From Acinetobacter phage Ab15, in sequence record PP763259.1: a stretch of 64,000 bases of DNA; one strand, 5' to 3'. Positions 25,677 through 59,306 of this stretch are shown here, in pieces (within the stretch, counting starts at the first letter, position 1; each line of letters starts with the position of its first letter). The notes beneath the pieces were generated by a model. That model ran no database searches. It had not been told where the DNA came from and was given only the letters and a program-made list of their open reading frames with translations. The translations under genes were made by a program, and so were the position numbers.

Positions 25677-25751
25677 AGTACCTTAGTTCAGGGGTAGAAC
25701 GCAGAACTGATAATTCTGAGGTCGATGGTTCGAAACCATCAGGTACTACCA
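25677..25751 (+). tRNA. tRNA-Ile (anticodon GAT)
   Basis: The acceptor is agtacct/aggtact, the D-stem is gttc/gaac and the anticodon stem is cagaa/ttctg with loop ctGATaa. The T-arm is gatgg-ttcgaaa-ccatc, with discriminator A and CCA. Confidence 0.7.
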
Positions 25752-25893
25752 AAATTTAATTGAAAGATTTATTTAAGATGTACTCTCTGTTTGTCAAATT
25801 AACATCAAGTGTAATCTTACTCTCACTGGTACGCCACTACCATAAGATTACATCTTAAATAGATTTTATAGCTATTTTAAAAGTTTATTCAGG

Positions 25894-25966
25894 TCTAGTG
25901 TAGCACAACGGTAGTGCAGCAGACTGTTAATCTGTTGGTTGTTGGTTCGAATCCAGCCTCTAGAGC
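25894..25966 (+). tRNA. tRNA-Asn (anticodon GTT)
   Basis: The acceptor is tctagtg/ctctaga (6/7), the D-stem is gcac/gtgc and the anticodon loop is ctGTTaa. The T-arm is gttgg-ttcgaat-ccagc. Confidence 0.55.
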
Positions 25967-26706
25967 CTGAGTAAATTAAGAATTACCCTTCGGGGTATGG
26001 GTCGTGTATAACCCTTAGATAAACTGCAAAACAGTATAAAGTCGTAACGGCAGTTATGGCGCAGATTAAAAATCTGTCAAGTACACACTCAAGGTATCAT
26101 ACTTATGTGGCGTAGAGCCAATCGGTGTAAACCATTTAAGTATGGGAGTGTAATGCTCCTGAGTCGATAGACAATAAGAGAACTTGAAGGTATCTAGCGA
26201 AGTTGATTGTCAAGTCAAAACGCTGTTTACCATTGTGAGAGGTATATAGAGTTTAACAGGTGGTGCTGAATCTCGTAGTCCTAAACCAAGTGGACAATAT
26301 ATGCTTGAAACATCGTGCATGGTAAAGCACATTAGGTAGTGTGGTATTGATGGGTTCAAAAGATCTGTTAGCCACAGAGAAACCACTATCTATGCAATAC
26401 AAATTTCATTTTAGGAAAAAATTAAATTCAAAAGTGTTTCTCACGTTGGCATGAAAGGTGCTTACATAGTAATGGGTTGTCCATTGCACATTTAACCCGA
26501 AAGGTTATTTGTAGTTTCATGAAAGGATTATGTTTGGTAGGCATACTAGCATAGTTTGAGTATTGGGAGAGTAGTTCCAACGTCTAAGAGTGGTTAGCTA
26601 TACTGACCAGCACTGATCACTACTATATAAAGTATAGTGGATAAGGAGGGAAAAATAATCCTCTCAAGGTGGTCATTTAAACGTGTAATCTCAGCGTTTT
26701 ACTTGT

Positions 26707-26782
26707 GGCTCGTTAGCTCAATCGGGAGAGCACTACACTGTCACTGTAGAGGTAATGGGATCGAAACCCATACGAGTCGCCA
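26707..26782 (+). tRNA. tRNA-Asp (anticodon GTC)
   Basis: The acceptor is ggctcgt/acgagtc and the anticodon stem is ctaca/tgtag with loop ctGTCac. The T-arm is ggatcgaaaccc, with discriminator G and CCA. Confidence 0.7.
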
Positions 26783-26784
26783 AT

Positions 26785-26861
26785 AGGACGTTAGCTTAGA
26801 GGCTTAAAGCAACTGTCTTTTAACCAGAAGATCATAGGTTCAAATCCTATACGTCCTACCA
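26785..26861 (+). tRNA. tRNA (77 nt) with irregular anticodon arm; possibly Lys (TTT)
   Basis: The acceptor aggacgt/acgtcct and the T-arm atagg-ttcaaat-cctat with A-CCA are perfect. The anticodon region aactgtcttttaaccagaag folds only with a weak stem or an 8-nt loop. Confidence 0.5.
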
Positions 26862-26866
26862 ACAAT

Positions 26867-26941
26867 GGTGACTTTAGTGTAATGGTTAGCATCACTCCCT
26901 GTGAAGGAGAAGGTCAGGGTTCAAATCCCGAAGTCACACCA
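26867..26941 (+). tRNA. tRNA-His (anticodon GTG) with extra 5' G
   Basis: G-1 is present, the acceptor is gtgactt/aagtcac and the anticodon stem is ctcc/ggag with loop ctGTGaa. The T-loop is ttcaaat and the 3' end is ACCA. Confidence 0.5.
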
Positions 26942-27465
26942 AGAATTTTAAGAATTTCAAAAGAGTATAGGTACAGTCCTGAAAGTTTGAAAGTGGGGCG
27001 ACACCTGCCTGAAGTAGTAGCTGATAATGGCCTGTTAGTGAATCTAAGTGGTGTGACTTGACTGACTTGGAGAGGAAGGTCGGGGCAAAGCACAAGTAGC
27101 TGAGATGGATTAGCGCTACCCTGAAGAGGTTGAGAGGTTGGATCGTTACCAACATTGTGCACCAAATTTTTAAAAGAAGAATTATTTTAGGATTACCATA
27201 ACCTAAAGGCTCGAAGGGGCGGTCTGCAACATCGTTGTTAGTGAGTTGAAGTCTCACATGGTAATCCAAAGTGATTTTTATAGAGGTTAAACCAGATAGG
27301 TTCTGGGACACCCTGCTAAGGTGATCGTGCTAGAAATAGCATTCGGATCGAGACCGATGACCTCTGCCAAATTTGTTGTGTGCTCCACAGGTTGATTCTG
27401 TTACGGTTATCCTCAAGACCAGACCGTAACAGGATGAGTTAAGCTTCTCTAAAAAAGCAAGTTTT

Positions 27466-27541
27466 GATTCCTTAGCTCAATTGGTAGAGCATTTCCCTTA
27501 CAAGGAAGAGGTCGTAGGTTCGAAACCTACAGGAATCACCA
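27466..27541 (+). tRNA. tRNA-Val (anticodon TAC)
   Basis: The acceptor gattcct/aggaatc is perfect and the D-stem is gctc/gagc. The anticodon stem is tttcc/ggaag with loop ctTACaa. The T-arm is gtagg-ttcgaaa-cctac, with A-CCA. Confidence 0.7.
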
Positions 27542-27666
27542 AATTTAGATATGGGAGTTGCAGGATTCTCCCACTGTTAGCTACTTTTAGAGTAGTCCGT
27601 GTAGGTTGACCGAACGAAGTTGTCGGTGATGCTACCAGAGCAGAACATTAATCAACACCTGTACTT

Positions 27667-27755
27667 GGTGGGTAGCGTCAAGGTGACAAAGAGGGCTTGA
27701 ACCCCTTGCCAATTGTGATGAGCAGTTGAGAGTTCGATTCTTTTACCCATCGCCA
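27667..27755 (+). tRNA. tRNA-Ser (anticodon TGA), type II with long variable arm
   Basis: 89 nt. The acceptor is ggtgggt/acccatc and the anticodon stem is gaggg/ccctt with loop ctTGAac. The variable arm is long, the T-loop is ttcgatt and the 3' end is G-CCA. Confidence 0.5.
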
Positions 27756-27756
27756 A

Positions 27757-27830
27757 GCGTTTATAGTGTAGTGGTAACACCCTGTACTTCCAATTCAGTA
27801 TCTTCGGTTCGAATCCGAATAGACGCTCCA
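27757..27830 (+). tRNA. tRNA-Gly (anticodon TCC)
   Basis: The acceptor is gcgttta/tagacgc and the D-stem is gtgt/acac. The anticodon loop is ctTCCaa and the T-arm is ttcgg-ttcgaat-ccgaa, with T-CCA. Confidence 0.6.
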
Positions 27831-27852
27831 GATTATGTTTATGGACACTTCC

Positions 27853-27970
27853 TAAGGTTCTTTCTACAGGTTCGAAACTGTTTTAAGAATTGCTGGTGCT
27901 AGGTTTAGCGTCAAGAATCATTCGAAGGGTTCTTGGGGTGGTGAGTTCGATTCTCACAGTGTTCCCCCGA
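27853..27970 (+). other. tRNA-like element about 117 nt, too long for a canonical tRNA
   Basis: The terminal pairing is ggacact/agtgttc and the T-arm gtgag-ttcgatt-ctcac is perfect. An internal second T-arm-like ctacag-gttcgaa-actgt is present and there is no encoded CCA. Confidence 0.25.
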
Positions 27971-27983
27971 TTTTAAAGTTTAT

Positions 27984-28060
27984 CTCTGTGTAGCTCAGTT
28001 TGGTAGAGCACTCGCTTTGGGAGTGAGGGGTCGTAAGTTCAATTCTTACTACAGAGACCA
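27984..28060 (+). tRNA. tRNA-Pro (anticodon TGG)
   Basis: The acceptor is ctctgtg/tacagag and the D-arm is gctc-agtttggta-gagc. The anticodon stem is ctcgc/gtgag with loop ttTGGga. The T-arm is gtaag-ttcaatt-cttac, with A-CCA. Confidence 0.7.
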
Positions 28061-28147
28061 GTTATGAAGTGTTTGTACAGCTATCAGCTCACCGTTTAAA
28101 GGATACGGACAAGTCGGCTCGACTAAAGACTCACTTCATATGTTTTT

Positions 28148-28224
28148 GGGTAGTTGAAGGGAATGGCATACCTTTCACGCTTAGAACGTGAAGTTTCTGA
28201 GTTCGAGTCTCAGACTACCTACCA
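28148..28224 (+). tRNA. tRNA with anticodon TAG (Leu-type anticodon) but short variable arm (type I)
   Basis: The acceptor is gggtagt/actacct and the anticodon stem tcacg/cgtga is perfect, with loop ctTAGaa. The variable loop is 5 nt. The T-arm is ctgag-ttcgagt-ctcag, with A-CCA. Confidence 0.55.
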
Positions 28225-28230
28225 AATTCT

Positions 28231-28306
28231 GGGGATATAGCCCAATGGCAGAGGCAAGAGGTTTAAACCCTCTCAAGTTTCAGTTCGAATCTGAATATCC
28301 CTACCA
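28231..28306 (+). tRNA. tRNA with anticodon TAA (Leu-type anticodon) but short variable arm (type I)
   Basis: The acceptor ggggata/tatccct and the anticodon stem agagg/cctct are perfect. The loop is ttTAAac and the variable loop is 4 nt. The T-arm is ttcag-ttcgaat-ctgaa, with A-CCA. Confidence 0.6.
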
Positions 28307-28321
28307 ATTTAGGAGTGCTAC

Positions 28322-28603
28322 ATGGAAGTATTACTTGTTAGTGATTGTAGATGCCAAGAGCGTTATGACTTTGCAGATATTGTAAAGGATGCTCAAGAAC
28401 AAGGTATTAAAATTAAGTATACATTAGTTCCTAAGAAGATATCCTATGAAGATAGAACTTACACATTTGTTAATGTTGAAGATCTCACTAAGGATAAAAG
28501 TTGTATTGTTGGTAAGAAGTTTGATGATGTCTATTTGACACCAGAAGCTAAAGATGCTATACCTTTAGGGTTGCTATCATTTATACTTACAAGAATACGT
28601 TAA
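28322..28603 (+). CDS. hypothetical protein inside tRNA cluster
   Basis: 93 aa with the SD aggag 7 nt upstream of the ATG. Confidence 0.5.
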   Translation: MEVLLVSDCRCQERYDFADIVKDAQEQGIKIKYTLVPKKISYEDRTYTFVNVEDLTKDKSCIVGKKFDDVYLTPEAKDAIPLGLLSFILTRIR

Positions 28604-28610
28604 GGTTAAT

Positions 28611-28687
28611 GTGCCATTAGCTCAATTGGATAGAGCAGAAGGTTTCTACCCTTAAGGTTGGGAGTTCGAATCTCTCATGGCATGCCA
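28611..28687 (+). tRNA. tRNA-Arg (anticodon TCT)
   Basis: The acceptor is gtgccat/atggcat and the D-arm is gctc-aattggata-gagc. The anticodon loop is ttTCTac and the T-arm is gggag-ttcgaat-ctctc, with G-CCA. Confidence 0.6.
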
Positions 28688-28700
28688 ATTAAAAGTTTAT

Positions 28701-28775
28701 TCCGAATTAGCTCAATGGTAGAGCAGTGCTTTTGTAATGCAAAGGTTGTGTGTTCGAATCACACATTCGGAACCA
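28701..28775 (+). tRNA. tRNA-Thr (anticodon TGT), weak anticodon stem
   Basis: The acceptor tccgaat/attcgga is perfect, the D-arm is gctc-aatggta-gagc and the T-arm gtgtg-ttcgaat-cacac is perfect. The loop tttTGTaa is flanked by only 3 Watson-Crick pairs. Confidence 0.6.
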
Positions 28776-28780
28776 ATTTA

Positions 28781-28858
28781 GGTCCTTTAGCACATATTGG
28801 TCTGTGCACCATGCTCATAACGTGGAGGATTTTGGTTCGATTCCAAAAAGGACCACCA
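28781..28858 (+). tRNA. tRNA-Met (anticodon CAT)
   Basis: The acceptor is ggtcctt/aaggacc, the anticodon stem is ccatg/cgtgg with loop ctCATaa and the T-arm is tttgg-ttcgatt-ccaaa, with A-CCA. Confidence 0.65.
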
Positions 28859-28922
28859 GTTTATATTGGGGAGTGTACTTGTCCTACATTCCACCAATGT
28901 AAACAACATAGAGGACAAGTCT

Positions 28923-29435
28923 ATGCAAGAGTTTTGGAAAGATGTTGTAGGTTATGAAGATTATTTCATGGTTTCTGATTTAGGTAGGGTTTACTCTAAA
29001 AGGTCAGGGAAGATTTTAAAACAGCATACTAACAGGAAAGGCTATATGCAGATTTCTACTAGAATTGGTGGTAGAAAAGGTATGGTTGTTTGTTTCAAGG
29101 TACATCGTTTGGTTGCTGAGGCTTTTATTAAAAATCCAGAAGGTAAAATAGCTGTTAACCACAAGAATGGTGTTAAAGACGATAATTGTGTAGGTAATCT
29201 AGAGTGGGTCACTCATAAAGAAAACCTAAAACATGCTGTTGATACAGGGCTGCTTAATTACGACCACTTGTTTGGTGCAAAACATCCAAAAAGAGTTTTG
29301 AGTTATCTTGAAGCAGAGGAAATTAGGCTGCTGCATCGAACTTCATCTAGATCATTAAGATCTATTGCTAAGGAGTTTCAGTGCCACCATCAGACAGTCC
29401 GAGAAATTATTGGTATGAAAACATATCTATCCTGA
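28923..29435 (+). CDS. HNH homing endonuclease (NUMOD4 plus HNH_3) inserted in tRNA cluster
   Basis: The likely start is MQEFWKDVVGYEDYFMVSDLGRVYS, behind the SD gagga. The HNH core is VNHKNGVKDDNCVGNLEWVTHKENLKHA. The track ORF starts earlier, at 28866. Confidence 0.7.
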   Translation: MQEFWKDVVGYEDYFMVSDLGRVYSKRSGKILKQHTNRKGYMQISTRIGGRKGMVVCFKVHRLVAEAFIKNPEGKIAVNHKNGVKDDNCVGNLEWVTHKENLKHAVDTGLLNYDHLFGAKHPKRVLSYLEAEEIRLLHRTSSRSLRSIAKEFQCHHQTVREIIGMKTYLS

Positions 29436-29590
29436 CACTATCAAATTGGATTAAGGTGTTGGTACGTGACATCCTTAATCGGCATGATTTTAGTTTATGT
29501 CGATGTGATAAACATGACTAGATAGATATGTCGATAAAAACTAGAAATTAAAACACGTAGTATTAAAATGTTAAAAATAATTAAACAAAA

Positions 29591-29626
29591 CACTTGACAA
29601 ATAGATTTTTAGTGTTATATATAATA
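29591..29626 (+). promoter_or_regulatory. candidate promoter (TTGACA -35, TATATA -10 region)
   Basis: The sequence cacTTGACAaatagatttttagtgtTATATAtaat lies upstream of the tRNA at 29648. Confidence 0.4.
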
Positions 29627-29647
29627 TATAAGCAATTAAGTTTTCAT

Positions 29648-29722
29648 AGCGAGGTAGTGTAACGGTTTGCACAGGGGACTCATAATCCTCTGGTTTGGGT
29701 TCGAATCCCAACTTCGCTTCCA
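29648..29722 (+). tRNA. second tRNA with anticodon CAT (elongator Met or Ile2/lysidine type; not initiator-like)
   Basis: The acceptor is agcgagg/cttcgct and the D-arm is gtgt-aacggtt-tgcac. The anticodon stem is gggga/tcctc with loop ctCATaa. The T-arm is ttggg-ttcgaat-cccaa, with T-CCA. The 1:72 pair is A:T, not the initiator mismatch. Confidence 0.65.
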
Positions 29723-54804: not shown

Positions 54805-57576
54805 TTATTGACAGTTATCACATTCTTCATGTCGCTTAATATCACCAGATCCCCTCATAGAGTAGATGTAGTATAAAGCTAAGATACCTGCATTTTCCAA
54901 AGCATATTTGTGAACCTTCATAATATACTCTGGAGTGTCATTACTTGTAAAATACAAGTTGATTGACTGTTGCTGATCAATATATTGTTGTCGTTGTGCA
55001 CACAAATCCAAATGTTTGATCATGTCAATCTCAAAGGCAGTTCTAAAGACATCCTTCTCATGCTGAGTCAACCAGTGAACATGTTGTACAGAACCTTTAT
55101 GCTTATTGATGTCATTGATTACGTCTTCATTGTAAACACCACGTTCCTTCATGATCTCTAGAAGGACCTTATTAACCCTCCAGATATCTCCTCCAGCACT
55201 CTGCTTAACGAACACCATAGCAACATCTAAACCAATACCTTCAGAAGCACCAGCCATAATCTCTGCTGTTGACTTTGTAGGTGGCATCATCATCGTTGTT
55301 GCATTACGGATTCCTAAATGAGCGCACCCTTCAGGCATACCAACTTCACGAGCCAACCACTTAGAAGCAGCTAAGGTTTGATCTCTCATACCCTTAAAGA
55401 TTTCTTCATTTAACCAGAAGCTCTCAAGGCTACCTACCACAATTCTACGTTTTTGTAGTAGTGTGTGGAAACCTAATACACCTGTACCAACTGCACGGAA
55501 TCTCTTGGTGAAGGCTAAGATTTTTCTAAATGCCAAGGCATCCTCTTTACCTTGCTTAGTTCGGTTTTCCATAAACTCGATGTAGTCACTCACATTACAA
55601 TCTTGCATTACATGTGCAATAAATGCTAAGTGAGGACATCTCGATTTCCACTCATCGTATAAGTCAAGGTTCAAGTTCAGAATTACACAAGAGAATGTAT
55701 GCTTCTCATCACTACCAAGTAACACTTCTTGGCAATTCATAGTATTCAAACCATTGAACATCAACATGTTACGTTTTGGCTCAAGTGCACAATATGTATC
55801 ATCAAATCTTCCTTGGTCGATCACTTCATCAACACATACAAATCTTTCAGCAGAACGTTGAGGTTTTCTTTCACTCCATTTTAGGCGGTGTGTTTTTAAA
55901 CCTAACTGACTCAACTTAAAGAGACCTGTACTCGATACAAGAAGACGATAAGCATCTTGGCATTCAAACAGTCCTTTATCACCCGTACCATTATTGAGAG
56001 GTAATTCTTTTAGACCACCTACATCCCTCAAGACAACCTTTGAAGAAACACCAAGTGTTTGTAACATCAATTGCACATCTTGTAAGAATGTCTTGTGAAT
56101 GCTTACCACTTGGATAGATTCATTTTCACCATTACGAGCAATAGTTCCATCTGAATCTAGGAGTCCAGCAAACCATTCCAATCGGCTTTCAACAGTGTAC
56201 TCAGATGTTGGTACAAAGAATTTATCCTTAAGTCCTTCACTGTGAGTAAGCTTAATACGATCACCACCTTGAAGTCCTGACACTGAAGAAACGCAAGTTA
56301 TATTTTCAAGTAACTCCTTCTTCTTACCATACAAGTATGTGTGTTTTTTACCTTTGTATTCAAAACCATCACCAGTGAAGAATCCATTAGTGTAAGCATG
56401 TTCGAGGGTCTTGTCACCTAAAATAACTGGTAGATCAAATTTAGATAGTCGATCACCAGACTTCAACTCGTAGGCACGTTTAATGACCTCATTGCCATCC
56501 TCACCAACAACCTTAAAGCGGTGATACTCTGTGCAATCTAATTCATACCCTGAATCAGTTACCACTTTAACTAACTTCTGATTTTCACCAGTTTTGATAA
56601 TTGTCACTTCAGACCATTCAAAACCATTCCACACCTCGACCTGTTGTCCCTCAAGGTCAGAAATCGTTTGATATCCACTTTTAGTTAAGATTAATGTCTC
56701 AGGTGAAACACACAAATTAGAAGCTTTCGCTGTCATACCTGCATCTTTAAATGCCTGAGCTAAGTGGCGGTTCATTTCATCAATCTTAGTGAAGTAACCC
56801 TTACCACGTTGCATCTTGATAGCAATAGCTTTAGCTAATAGGGCAACTGCTTCTGGGTCATCCTTGACTAACTTCTCAATGTACTCGTCCTTACATAACC
56901 ATGCTGGGTTATTACTTTCAGGTCGTTTGAATAAGTACTTTAAAACTTCCTCAAACTCGGGATGTTCAATACTTACAGCATAAGATAAACTACCTCTACG
57001 GCTACCTTGAACAACCTCATCCATACAGTTGATTAAGTCACGGATAAGAGGCATAACCCCACCACTGTAACCACCACGAGGTAGTTTCTTACCTTTATAG
57101 GCCCAATCATCAATTGAGTAAGATGTACCATGTGAGTGCTTAGTTAGGATAGCTGCTTCAGTCACACAATCATAACGAGAGAACAAGTCATCACCAACAT
57201 AACCGCTAGCACAACTTACTGTTGATCCCCTTTCAGGTAAACCACTGTTCGCCAATAAAGGAGTTGAACAAGACACATAACCATCCCAAAGTACGTCAAA
57301 AAACACCTCCTCCCAAGTTTTACCAGCCGTATAAGTATCCACATTCCACCAAGAAGGGTACTTATCTGGTGCATGTTTAGCTAAAGTCTTAGCAATCATT
57401 TTATAGCGAGCTTTTACAGTCTCACCATTCCACGAATACTTTTCAAAGAACAACTGAGTCCCACCAGTGGTAAACCATTTAGGGATCTCTCCATGTTCTT
57501 GTAGTTTTTTTCGAAGTTGACTGTAACTGTCAACCCCGTATAATTCCAATGTCTCTAAATAAGATAAAACAGCCAC
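54805..57576 (-). CDS. nrdA: ribonucleotide reductase large subunit with in-frame LAGLIDADG intein
   Basis: 923 aa. The catalytic motif SNL-C…N-CQEV is split by about 326 aa beginning CVSPETLILTKSGY (intein block A). It contains GFFTGDG and FAGLLDSDG dodecapeptide motifs and ends ...NTMN|C. Confidence 0.75.
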   Translation of the reverse strand: MAVLSYLETLELYGVDSYSQLRKKLQEHGEIPKWFTTGGTQLFFEKYSWNGETVKARYKMIAKTLAKHAPDKYPSWWNVDTYTAGKTWEEVFFDVLWDGYVSCSTPLLANSGLPERGSTVSCASGYVGDDLFSRYDCVTEAAILTKHSHGTSYSIDDWAYKGKKLPRGGYSGGVMPLIRDLINCMDEVVQGSRRGSLSYAVSIEHPEFEEVLKYLFKRPESNNPAWLCKDEYIEKLVKDDPEAVALLAKAIAIKMQRGKGYFTKIDEMNRHLAQAFKDAGMTAKASNLCVSPETLILTKSGYQTISDLEGQQVEVWNGFEWSEVTIIKTGENQKLVKVVTDSGYELDCTEYHRFKVVGEDGNEVIKRAYELKSGDRLSKFDLPVILGDKTLEHAYTNGFFTGDGFEYKGKKHTYLYGKKKELLENITCVSSVSGLQGGDRIKLTHSEGLKDKFFVPTSEYTVESRLEWFAGLLDSDGTIARNGENESIQVVSIHKTFLQDVQLMLQTLGVSSKVVLRDVGGLKELPLNNGTGDKGLFECQDAYRLLVSSTGLFKLSQLGLKTHRLKWSERKPQRSAERFVCVDEVIDQGRFDDTYCALEPKRNMLMFNGLNTMNCQEVLLGSDEKHTFSCVILNLNLDLYDEWKSRCPHLAFIAHVMQDCNVSDYIEFMENRTKQGKEDALAFRKILAFTKRFRAVGTGVLGFHTLLQKRRIVVGSLESFWLNEEIFKGMRDQTLAASKWLAREVGMPEGCAHLGIRNATTMMMPPTKSTAEIMAGASEGIGLDVAMVFVKQSAGGDIWRVNKVLLEIMKERGVYNEDVINDINKHKGSVQHVHWLTQHEKDVFRTAFEIDMIKHLDLCAQRQQYIDQQQSINLYFTSNDTPEYIMKVHKYALENAGILALYYIYSMRGSGDIKRHEECDNCQ
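55735..56712 (-). mobile_element. intein (LAGLIDADG homing-endonuclease type) within nrdA
   Basis: Residues 289-614 of the ORF. Excision restores the NLCQEV active-site motif. Confidence 0.65.
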
Positions 57577-57586
57577 AAATACCTCC

Positions 57587-58150
57587 TTACTTACTTCCTT
57601 GTAATCCTTTATTCTCTTCTGAATCTTCCATGATCAGCTTCAAGAGTTCTTCTTGTTCCTCTTGTTCTTTCTTCCTCATATTATTCCAAGCTTCTACAAA
57701 CATAGCCTCAGACCAGTTACTTTCATACTCTCGGTTTTGACCCTTAGTGAAGAAATCTGGCATCTGGTAACCGTATGTATTTAAGTTAAACATCTTAGCC
57801 ACTTTAGAATCCTTCTGAGTAACTTGAAACTCTTTAGGGATTTTATCTACAGGAACCTGCAAACGAGTCAAGAAAGTAAAGATTCGGAAGCGCACAAAAT
57901 CAATGTACTCGGCTGTTGTATACCCATTAAGTGAACCTGAAGGGATTGCCATATCAATGATTCGCTTCTCATGCTCTAACACGTAGTGGCAAGCTTGTAG
58001 TAACTTTCCAAACATTTCTTCATGCTCATGTAGAGGTTTCCCTACTTCATGGAAATAGGTGTTAAAATGTTCTGCGGCGTAAATTCCATGCAACATGGGT
58101 TGTTCAGGTGTGCTCGTTACACACACCCCGTAGAGTACTTCACCACTCAA
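57587..58150 (-). CDS. nrdB: ribonucleotide reductase small subunit, C-terminal exon region
   Basis: It carries GSLNGYTTAEYIDFVRFRIFTFLTRLQVPV, matching the conserved GLNkd..YveYitN.R...GL region of R2. It has no proper start (TTG). It lies out of frame with the upstream part. Confidence 0.55.
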   Translation of the reverse strand: MSGEVLYGVCVTSTPEQPMLHGIYAAEHFNTYFHEVGKPLHEHEEMFGKLLQACHYVLEHEKRIIDMAIPSGSLNGYTTAEYIDFVRFRIFTFLTRLQVPVDKIPKEFQVTQKDSKVAKMFNLNTYGYQMPDFFTKGQNREYESNWSEAMFVEAWNNMRKKEQEEQEELLKLIMEDSEENKGLQGSK

Positions 58151-58538
58151 GTACTCACAGCTTACACTTTCATGTAAGATCAGACTATATCATCACCACA
58201 AGGTTTTACTTGTTGTGGTGCTTCCCACTTCGGTCTTACTTAAGACCTACTCCCCGAAGGGATAGTCGTTGAGGATTCTAAACCTAATTCCAACCACAAA
58301 GCTTTCCAACGTTTTTTATGCCTAATTAACGAAACATATCTAATGTATCCAGAAAATTTTGGATGTTTAAATTTTTCCATAATTACCTCCATAATAAGAG
58401 GTTGGAATTAGGTTTAGCTTTCCTGCTGATTGCCCAATACTTTAGATTTTTACTCAGTGTTTAAATTTTTCAACACTTCAGTACTAAAGTCTCTAAGGGG
58501 TTTCCAGCATTTCAAGAAGTTTATTGAGGACTTGCAAA
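58151..58538 (-). mobile_element. candidate group I intron interrupting nrdB (boundaries approximate)
   Basis: About 390 nt with no long ORF lie between two nrdB halves in different frames. There is an 18-bp perfect inverted repeat (58278-58295 / 58400-58417) and further hairpins. Confidence 0.45.
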
Positions 58539-59306
58539 TTAATCCTCATCTAGTGCACTCTGGTTAGCAATTTGGGCAATAACTTTAATTAAGTTAAAAC
58601 CATTTGTCTGGAAGCTCTTAAGGATAGCAAAACTAGAGAACAACAAAGCTGTCTCTGTTAAAGAGAAGCACAAGCATGCAAGCATCTTGTTTTCATCTCG
58701 CATTAAACCATCTAACCATTCCATACGTTCATTGAGTACAGGGTCATCAATGTATGATGTGTAGTAATCATCAGTATCTAGTCCAAGTACAATGTTAATC
58801 TCATTGTACGTTCGTGCATGGACCATCAACTCAATCATTGCTAAAGCAGAAGCACCAGCACGGGATTCATGTCGAGGGAATACTTTAATGAATAATCCAT
58901 TCCAGAATTCATCACCAACAATTAATTCATACTGTAAGAATAAGTGTAGAACTGTTTTTACTGCATGTAGTTGCTCTTTAGTTAGCACATACTCAAGTTC
59001 CATCTGGTCATTCTTGACTTCCATTTCACTCTTAAACCACATCTGCTCTTCAAGCTGCTGGTCAGCAATCTCAAGAATCTTTGGGTACTTAATCTCATAG
59101 CCACTATTGGGTGATGTAATACGGGTTTGCACTAATCCAGTTTTCTCTGAATTTAATGTTTTGTTTATTGTCACATAAACGAATTTCCCTTCAGGGTTTT
59201 TCTCATCCTTGACATTGATGATAACCTTTCCAGCCGGTGGTGGTAAAAATCTAATCTTCTCAACCTGACCTTCGGTTAAATCCACCTCAATATTAATTTT
59301 AGACAT
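58539..59306 (-). CDS. nrdB: ribonucleotide reductase small subunit, N-terminal exon region
   Basis: It carries KYPKILEIADQQLEEQMWFKSEMEV…LTKEQLHAVKTVLHLF…AMIELMVHARTY…SLTETALLFSSFAIL. This matches the R2 FW.pEE, E..H and helix-E Glu regions. The ORF runs into a stop before the expected RDE..H motif. Confidence 0.6.
   Translation of the reverse strand: MSKINIEVDLTEGQVEKIRFLPPPAGKVIINVKDEKNPEGKFVYVTINKTLNSEKTGLVQTRITSPNSGYEIKYPKILEIADQQLEEQMWFKSEMEVKNDQMELEYVLTKEQLHAVKTVLHLFLQYELIVGDEFWNGLFIKVFPRHESRAGASALAMIELMVHARTYNEINIVLGLDTDDYYTSYIDDPVLNERMEWLDGLMRDENKMLACLCFSLTETALLFSSFAILKSFQTNGFNLIKVIAQIANQSALDED

Follow-up and report, generated by a model that had tools for sequence, protein, structure and literature searches.

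How does Acinetobacter phage Ab15 encode the small subunit of its ribonucleotide reductase, when the gene for it lies in two pieces that are out of frame with each other? We address this question in 64,000 nucleotides of Ab15 DNA (PP763259.1), which we call the window and from the first letter of which all coordinates are counted. In a megablast search the window matches a cluster of A. baumannii myophages, namely AM24, Bestia, Herod and Mithridates along with P577 and YMC13/03/R2096, at 97-98% identity; the AM24-type cluster is listed as unclassified Caudoviricetes in a 2024 review (PMC11126041). The locus lies on the minus strand and comprises nrdB, which is the gene for the small subunit of a class Ia ribonucleotide reductase, followed directly by nrdA (57576..54805). 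The list of open reading frames breaks nrdB into an upstream ORF of 255 aa (58539..59306, minus strand) and a downstream ORF of 187 aa (57587..58150, minus strand), which has a TTG start and lies in a different frame. An earlier note on this DNA had read the two as halves of one gene, with N-terminal R2 motifs in the upstream half, and had offered the segment between them as a candidate group I intron. The split into out-of-frame halves is confirmed, and so is the identity of the upstream ORF, which matches the Pfam profile Ribonuc_red_sm over its N-terminal two thirds only (positions 5-191 of 281, E 1e-22). The downstream ORF, taken alone, matched no reductase family in a Pfam profile search.

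The insertion in nrdB and its boundaries

Three of the sister phages, Mithridates, Bestia and AM24, possess an uninterrupted nrdB of 1272 nt that encodes 423 aa (97% DNA identity). Alignment of the window with this intron-less gene yields two colinear blocks, and the difference between the two alleles is exactly 448 extra nucleotides in the window. Around the point of insertion, which we mark here and below with a slash, the intact gene reads …AQIANQSALDEDLHGIYAAEHF… (in AM24 and Mithridates, …GATGAAGAC/CTTCATGGT…), and the window reads …GCA CTA GAT GAG GAT / 448 nt / TTG CAT GGA ATT TAC…. A single cut simultaneously leaves a U before the 5' splice site and a G before the 3' splice site and preserves the reading frame. 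It defines exon 1 at 58542..59306 (minus strand; 255 codons ending in …SALDED, with U58542 as the last base), for which the ORF list, the Pfam match and the colinearity with the intron-less nrdB of Mithridates and AM24 agree. Exon 2, likewise colinear with the intron-less allele, occupies 57587..58093 (minus strand; 168 codons plus the stop, starting with LHGIYAAEH…). Between them lies the predicted group I intron at 58094..58541 (minus strand; 448 nt, phase 0), and the predicted junction of the ligated exons is …GAGGAU/UUGCAU… in the RNA, corresponding to …GATGAGGAT/TTGCATGGA… in the DNA.

Removal of the 448 nt yields an nrdB of 1272 nt, the 423-aa product of which is equal in length to the NrdB proteins of Mithridates and AM24. 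It differs from the intron-less proteins by 3-4 substitutions overall (three in the comparison with Mithridates), and a stretch of 144 aa that spans the junction is 100% identical to them. The joined protein matches Ribonuc_red_sm over positions 5-270 of 281 (E 4e-31). It also accounts for the second iron-binding E..H motif (RDE..H), which the earlier note could not place in either ORF: the motif is indeed whole in neither, but it is not missing, as it straddles the junction: exon 1 closes with the four codons for LDED, and exon 2 opens with the two for LH.

The interval of ~390 nt (58151-58538) that the earlier note took for the element is bounded by the ends of the two ORFs rather than by those of the insertion. 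In particular, codons 1-19 of the downstream ORF (58150..58094) are intron sequence, namely the peripheral helices P9.1 and P9.2 and the 3' tail, which happens by chance to be open in the frame of exon 2. The splice boundaries, which the note had not placed, are set here by comparison with the intron-less alleles and not by the ends of the Rfam match described below. We rejected those ends (58575..58161) as boundaries: the match reaches 34 nt into exon 1, where it rests on non-canonical pairs, and ends short of P9.1 and P9.2. The model forces P1 and P2 onto exon sequence, and its alignment of these helices at the 5' end is wrong.

The ribozyme core and the proposed splicing reaction

A search with covariance models, which had been named as a test of the intron proposal, detects a group I core on the gene strand. 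Rfam RF00028 (Intron_gpI), for which the gathering score is 50 bits, matches at 58575..58161 with 54.9 bits (E 3e-11 for a search of 64 kb). The match covers the full model (1-253) and is the sole intron match within the 64-kb window. That the score is only ~5 bits over the threshold is due to the ORF insertion and the missing P2. Among the relatives, the ORF-less intron of Herod reaches 82.4 bits and the intron of Pseudomonas phage vB_PsyM_KIL1 54 bits. The unconstrained minimum free energy fold has a z-score of -5.9 against shuffled sequences, and recovers P1, P4, P5/P5a, P6/P6a, P7.1, P7.2, P9, P9.1 and P9.2.

All the elements of the ribozyme lie on the minus strand. An internal guide of 11 nt, 5'-UGCAA GUCCUC-3' (58526..58536), is complementary to the ends of both exons. 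Its GUCCUC part (58531..58526) forms P1 with the exon-1 sequence GAGGAU (58547..58542) through five Watson-Crick pairs and a terminal U·G at the splice site; by itself this helix is short (6 bp). The UGCAA part (58536..58532) forms P10 with the exon-2 sequence UUGCA (58093..58089), a helix of 5 bp that is contiguous with P1. The P10 guide lies directly 5' of the P1 guide, and therefore a single 11-nt guide pairs with the ligated GAGGAU/UUGCA. At the other end, the last base of the intron is the terminal G (omega-G) at 58094, which marks the 3' splice site.

Between these elements, P3 pairs 58519..58513 with 58227..58221. Both our reading of the helices and the fold give P4 (58509..58504 with 58429..58424), P5 (58500..58498 with 58435..58433) and the P5a extension (58490..58484 with 58445..58439). 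P6 (58423..58421 with 58275..58273) closes the P6a stem and the loop that bears an ORF. P6a itself (58417..58400 with 58295..58278) is an 18-bp perfect inverted repeat with an endonuclease ORF in its loop. The repeat is present at the positions previously described; however, it does not flank the mini-ORF, as had been thought, since its 3' arm lies inside it. P7 (58267..58262 with 58188..58183) is invariant in all four introns that we compared, and encloses P7.1 (58261..58259 with 58254..58252; CCC-UUCG-GGG), P7.2 (58247..58241 with 58238..58232; GGUCUUA-AG-UAAGACC), the 3' strand of P3, and P8 (58220..58213 with 58201..58194), the last identified by helix reading. P7.2 corresponds to an extra hairpin (GGTCTTA/TAAGACC, 58232-58247) that had been picked out from the letters. 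P9 (58178..58172 with 58167..58161), after which the Rfam match ends at 58161, is followed by P9.1 (58156..58149 with 58140..58133) and P9.2 (58127..58121 with 58113..58107), both by helix reading.

Subgroup IA is marked by two extra hairpins, P7.1 and P7.2, that follow P7 and precede the 3' strand of P3, and a P2 stem between P1 and P3 is typical of IA2 introns, such as those in td, nrdB and nrdD of phage T4. The Ab15 intron possesses both subgroup IA hairpins but lacks P2: the gap between P1 and P3 consists of just six bases, AAUAAA (58525..58520), and the same holds for the KIL1 intron. As P2 is missing, unlike in the T4 and SPβ introns, we file the intron as IA without a finer subgroup.

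Further support comes from changes that preserve pairing among the introns of the window, Herod, KIL1 and SPβ, which we aligned by hand, helix by helix and strand by strand, leaving out the P8 of SPβ; with so small and hand-aligned a sample the covariation lends support without being statistical evidence. P3, P6, P6a, P7.2, P8, P9 and P10 all contain compensatory pairs. In P3, a C-G pair is replaced by U-A in KIL1, and a U-A pair by C-G in SPβ. At the third pair of P6, the A-U of the window corresponds to G-C in Herod and SPβ and to U-A in KIL1; at its middle pair SPβ has C-G, and the other three introns have G-C; between the window and Herod alone this helix shows a double compensatory change, from GGA/UCC to GGG/CCC. 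Pairing in the first 8 bp of P6a is kept via compensatory changes in both KIL1 and SPβ, P9 has several compensatory pairs in KIL1, and the P7.2 and P8 hairpins of KIL1 are retained despite changed sequences. In P10, a synonymous change in exon 2 of KIL1 (UUGCA to UUACA) is mirrored in its guide (UGCAA to UGUGA), such that the helix is still paired.

A MAFFT alignment of the four introns was not used as the basis for pairing, as it is not structure-aware in P2, P5a, P7.x and P8. Two complementarities between exon and intron were rejected as structure and put down to chance. The one between 58548-58541 and 58277-58270 has no counterpart in KIL1. In the other, a 9-nt stretch of exon 1, AUUGCCCAA (58572..58580), is complementary to 58429..58437, which comprises the 3' strand of P5, J5/4 and the 3' strand of P4. 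This complementarity is perfect in the window and in YMC13/03/R2096 and could represent an alternative, splicing-inhibitory pairing, but a single substitution in Herod breaks it and it probably arose by chance.

Taken together, the covariance-model match, the exact insertion, P1, P10, the omega-G and the covariation bear out the earlier proposal, and we are highly confident that the 448-nt insert is a group I intron, the removal of which would restore nrdB. The intron RNA is predicted to splice as well. We propose that in the pre-mRNA the intron would fold into a standard group I ribozyme, the guide of which would bring the two exon ends together through P1, with its U·G pair at U58542, and P10. 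Free guanosine would then attack after U58542, and the freed 3'-OH of exon 1 would in turn attack after the terminal G58094. The joined exons would encode …SALDED-LHGIY…, thereby rebuilding the second E..H iron-ligand motif of the 423-aa NrdB.

The decayed endonuclease gene, the allelic states and rival explanations

The mini-ORF within the intron, MEKFKHPKFSGYIRYVSLIRHKKRWKAL…, extends over 58240..58380 on the minus strand (ATG at 58380, stop ending at 58240; 46 aa plus the stop) and has a Shine-Dalgarno sequence of its own, GGAGG, as the earlier note had observed. Its product matched no Pfam or PHROG family. We identified it as the remnant of a homing endonuclease gene by comparison with the introns of YMC13/03/R2096, P577 and the Logan assembly ERR14063866, which are 856 nt long and bear an intact ORF of 182 aa in the P6a loop. 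The intact protein displays Pfam HNH_3 (residues 50-91, E 2e-12) and HTH_23 (residues 127-157) domains, falls into PHROG HNH-endonuclease families, and is 41% identical to the product of yosQ in SPβ (E 2e-27). Alignment with the YMC13/03/R2096 ORF shows that 408 nt (136 codons) are missing in frame from the Ab15 copy. The deletion lies between two ATACA repeats, with its junction in the ATACA at 58348..58344, and removes residues 13-148 of 182, taking both HNH_3 and HTH_23 with it. In the mini-ORF, residues 1-12 are followed by the final 33, and at the point of fusion one residue is substituted (Ile); it retains neither the catalytic nor the DNA-binding domain.

The 3' part of the mini-ORF overlaps the 3' strands of P6a and P6, J6/7, the 5' strand of P7, P7.1 and P7.2, and its stop codon falls in the P7.2 loop; it was probably retained because it is also ribozyme sequence. 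At its other end, a small hairpin, CCUC…GGAG (58386..58401, minus strand), contains the Shine-Dalgarno sequence of the ORF, and in Herod, the intron of which has no ORF, P6 is capped by the same CCUC/GAGG hairpin. Sequestration of the ribosome-binding site is a known control of the T4 intron endonucleases (PMC2988022), and by analogy the hairpin may control translation of this ORF.

For the site in nrdB as a whole we compared three intron-less and five intron-bearing records or assemblies, each 97-98% identical to the window. The site occurs in four states: empty; an 856-nt intron with the HNH gene; the 448-nt intron of the window and the Logan assembly SRR28813064; and, in Herod, a 322-nt intron without an ORF, from which the P6a stem-loop is also wholly absent. 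Over 6.8 kb the Logan SRR28813064 contig matches the window at 100% identity, and it may come from the same isolate. A scan of viral contigs with the spliced NrdB returned the YMC13/03/R2096 genome only.

The exons adjoining the intron carry a further signal. Of the 40 exon differences from the intron-less allele, eight are found no more than 18 nt from the junction, against an expectation of 1.2 (binomial P 2e-5), and all eight, in the region 58524..58560 and 58075..58093, are synonymous. The intron-bearing alleles (GAGGAT/TTGCA) pair with the guide, whereas the empty alleles (GAAGAC/CTTCA) would not. Homing is accompanied by co-conversion of the flanking exons (PMC2988022), and the clustered synonymous changes would fit such co-conversion combined with a need for pairing in P1 and P10; resistance of the empty alleles to the endonuclease could be a further cause. 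Presence and absence at one site, together with altered flanking exons, is the pattern of a mobile intron, and we read the alleles as probable traces of such mobility. The intron would formerly have moved by homing, with its P6a loop then carrying the 182-aa HNH gene; in Ab15, 408 nt of this gene have been lost in frame between the two ATACA repeats. The intact HNH protein presumably cuts intron-less nrdB, and the Ab15 copy of the intron is probably unable to move alone.

The visible decay of the endonuclease gene, along with an Rfam score close to the threshold, speaks for a rival explanation, according to which the insert is a decayed mobile element that has lost splicing, which would leave nrdB as a pseudogene and the phage dependent on the reductase of its host. 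We regard this as very improbable. All core helices, the guide and the terminal G are intact, and the ribozyme outside P6 (300 nt) is 100% identical in all four intron-bearing genomes compared, the nrdB exons of which differ at 21-29 of 1272 sites, though recent spread among the phages, instead of selection for function, could also have produced this identity. Moreover, the exon changes around the junction are exclusively synonymous and amino-acid changes number just 3-4 overall, from which it follows that the nrdB coding sequence is still constrained; the downstream nrdA is intact as well.

It is less likely still that NrdB is made in two parts, separate polypeptides that would come together as the active subunit with no RNA splicing involved, as is reported for NrdA from Aeromonas phage Aeh1, which is split by mobE (PMC3653736). 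The GenBank records of the sister phages do annotate two separate CDSs, and the downstream ORF begins at a TTG that is in frame (58150). However, this TTG lies within helix P9.1, and inspection by eye revealed no Shine-Dalgarno sequence upstream of it. Without splicing, the Glu and the His of one E..H motif for iron binding would end up on different polypeptides, with 19 foreign residues added, and what interrupts the gene is a whole ribozyme rather than an endonuclease gene standing on its own. The least probable explanation, which we consider highly implausible, is that the apparent split reflects a frameshift or mis-assembly, an outcome the earlier note had named as one that would overturn its reading; we found nothing in its favor. 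The two alleles differ by a structured insertion of 448 nt and not by a small indel. Five other records or assemblies show the split too, in three length variants: the identical arrangement is found in a separate assembly (Logan SRR28813064, with the caveat of a possibly shared isolate), and related length variants are present in four other phage genomes.

Annotation, neighboring elements and known introns

The sister GenBank records list nrdB as two or three unrelated CDSs. Exon 2 is annotated as a separate protein in KM672662 (2394..2822) and MW316732 (1779..2288), and the exon-2 fragment of YMC13/03/R2096 is labelled 'ribonucleoside-diphosphate reductase alpha chain'. At its gathering threshold RF00028 misses the 856-nt, endonuclease-bearing form of the intron, which is probably why annotation pipelines missed the intron. 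Our search of the literature on the AM24-type cluster found no mention of an intron or intein. The main consequence of the present finding is therefore one of annotation, and it changes no concept: with the intron recognized, these A. baumannii phages, which are therapeutic candidates, are seen to encode a complete NrdB, and the many introns known from the reductase genes of phages gain an example from gammaproteobacterial phages. In addition, the four allelic states could be a convenient natural system for the study of intron homing and endonuclease decay.

The adjoining nrdA (54805..57576) bears an intein of 326 aa with a LAGLIDADG endonuclease domain (55735..56712, minus strand). It is inserted at …ASNL/C…, directly before the Cys of the NLC-E motif, which we take to be the active-site Cys. 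The nrdA of Mithridates is exactly 978 nt shorter and therefore lacks the intein, and that of AM24 has it. In the Logan assembly ERR14063866, where the locus shows 97.5% identity and the intron bears the full HNH gene, the nrdA product is 955 aa long versus 923 aa in Ab15, suggesting a different intein variant. With an intron in nrdB and an intein in nrdA, both reductase genes thus carry independent selfish elements, as they do in SPβ. Elsewhere in the window, a GOLLD RNA (Rfam RF02032, 218.9 bits, E 1e-60) is found on the plus strand at 26332..26697, within an array of 15 tRNA genes (25677..29719). Among the sister phages this region has a mosaic make-up, with 48-76% of it covered at 97-98% identity, and in AM24 it contains HNH homing endonuclease genes.

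The kind of intron described here is very well known, with T4 nrdB/I-TevIII and SPβ bnrdF/yosQ as examples, and its novelty is limited to its being unannotated in this phage cluster. According to one survey, ribonucleotide reductase genes are the nucleotide-metabolism genes most often interrupted by introns in phages (PMC3653736). The nrdB of Pseudomonas phage vB_PsyM_KIL1 (Flaumdravirus), the CDS of which is already annotated as joined in RefSeq (NC_030934), has an intron at the same insertion site (…SAIDED/LHG…); our search of the literature found nothing on an intron in KIL1. Like the Ab15 intron, it follows an exon 1 ending in GAGGAU, uses the guide GUCCUC, lacks P2 and possesses P7.1 and P7.2. 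Its P6a loop also holds a decayed ORF, which starts with MRKFHP…, but the decay is independent of and different from that in Ab15. The KIL1 intron is 408 nt long as against 448 nt in Ab15, with ~74% DNA identity over part of the 5' half only, and its P8, P9 and peripheral helices differ in sequence. To judge from these comparisons, what looks like the same intron occupies the same site in a phage of another genus and another host.

In Bacillus phage SPβ, a group I intron with yosQ interrupts bnrdF (Lazarevic et al., 1998, as cited in PMC3653736). As in Ab15, the intron lies in a small-subunit gene that adjoins an intein-bearing large-subunit gene, and yosQ, like the ORF of the Ab15 lineage, lies in the P6a loop and extends at its 3' end into J6/7 and P7, with …STTI encoded in both. 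On the other hand, the host gene in SPβ is a class Ib nrdF and that in Ab15 a class Ia nrdB; the insertion, as read from the sequence only, is 13-16 nt further upstream in SPβ, before the RDE codons; and in the SPβ intron, unlike its Ab15 counterpart, the endonuclease gene is intact and a P2 hairpin is present.

In T4, the nrdB intron harbors the HNH gene for I-TevIII; a large deletion has inactivated this gene, which is intact and active in RB3 (PMC1865063, PMC2988022), and mobE acts in trans for the defunct I-TevIII intron (PMC2790892). The parallels with Ab15 comprise a group IA intron in a phage nrdB, a deleted HNH gene with an intact relative, and an ORF looped out of the ribozyme. Nevertheless, the T4 site lies ~25 codons upstream of the RDE..H motif whereas that of Ab15 lies inside it, and the T4 intron has a P2 stem that is absent from the Ab15 intron. 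We also considered I-TevIII as an ortholog of the HNH protein and rejected this, there being no significant similarity (best E 0.06).

These comparisons permit a more speculative, joint proposal, which we advance as a tentative possibility that we doubt more than we believe: that the cluster displays every stage of the homing-endonuclease life cycle at one site, that the deleted copy may spread in mixed infections with the help in trans of an intact enzyme made by a related, co-infecting phage, as the defunct I-TevIII intron does by way of T4 mobE, and that one lineage of endonuclease and ribozyme might have settled both in class Ia nrdB and in class Ib nrdF, at sites that lie 13-16 nt from each other. 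The last of these, if true, would be a documented retargeting event. Of the known systems, SPβ bnrdF/yosQ is the nearest to the Ab15 intron in descent, and T4 nrdB/I-TevIII is the nearest in biology.
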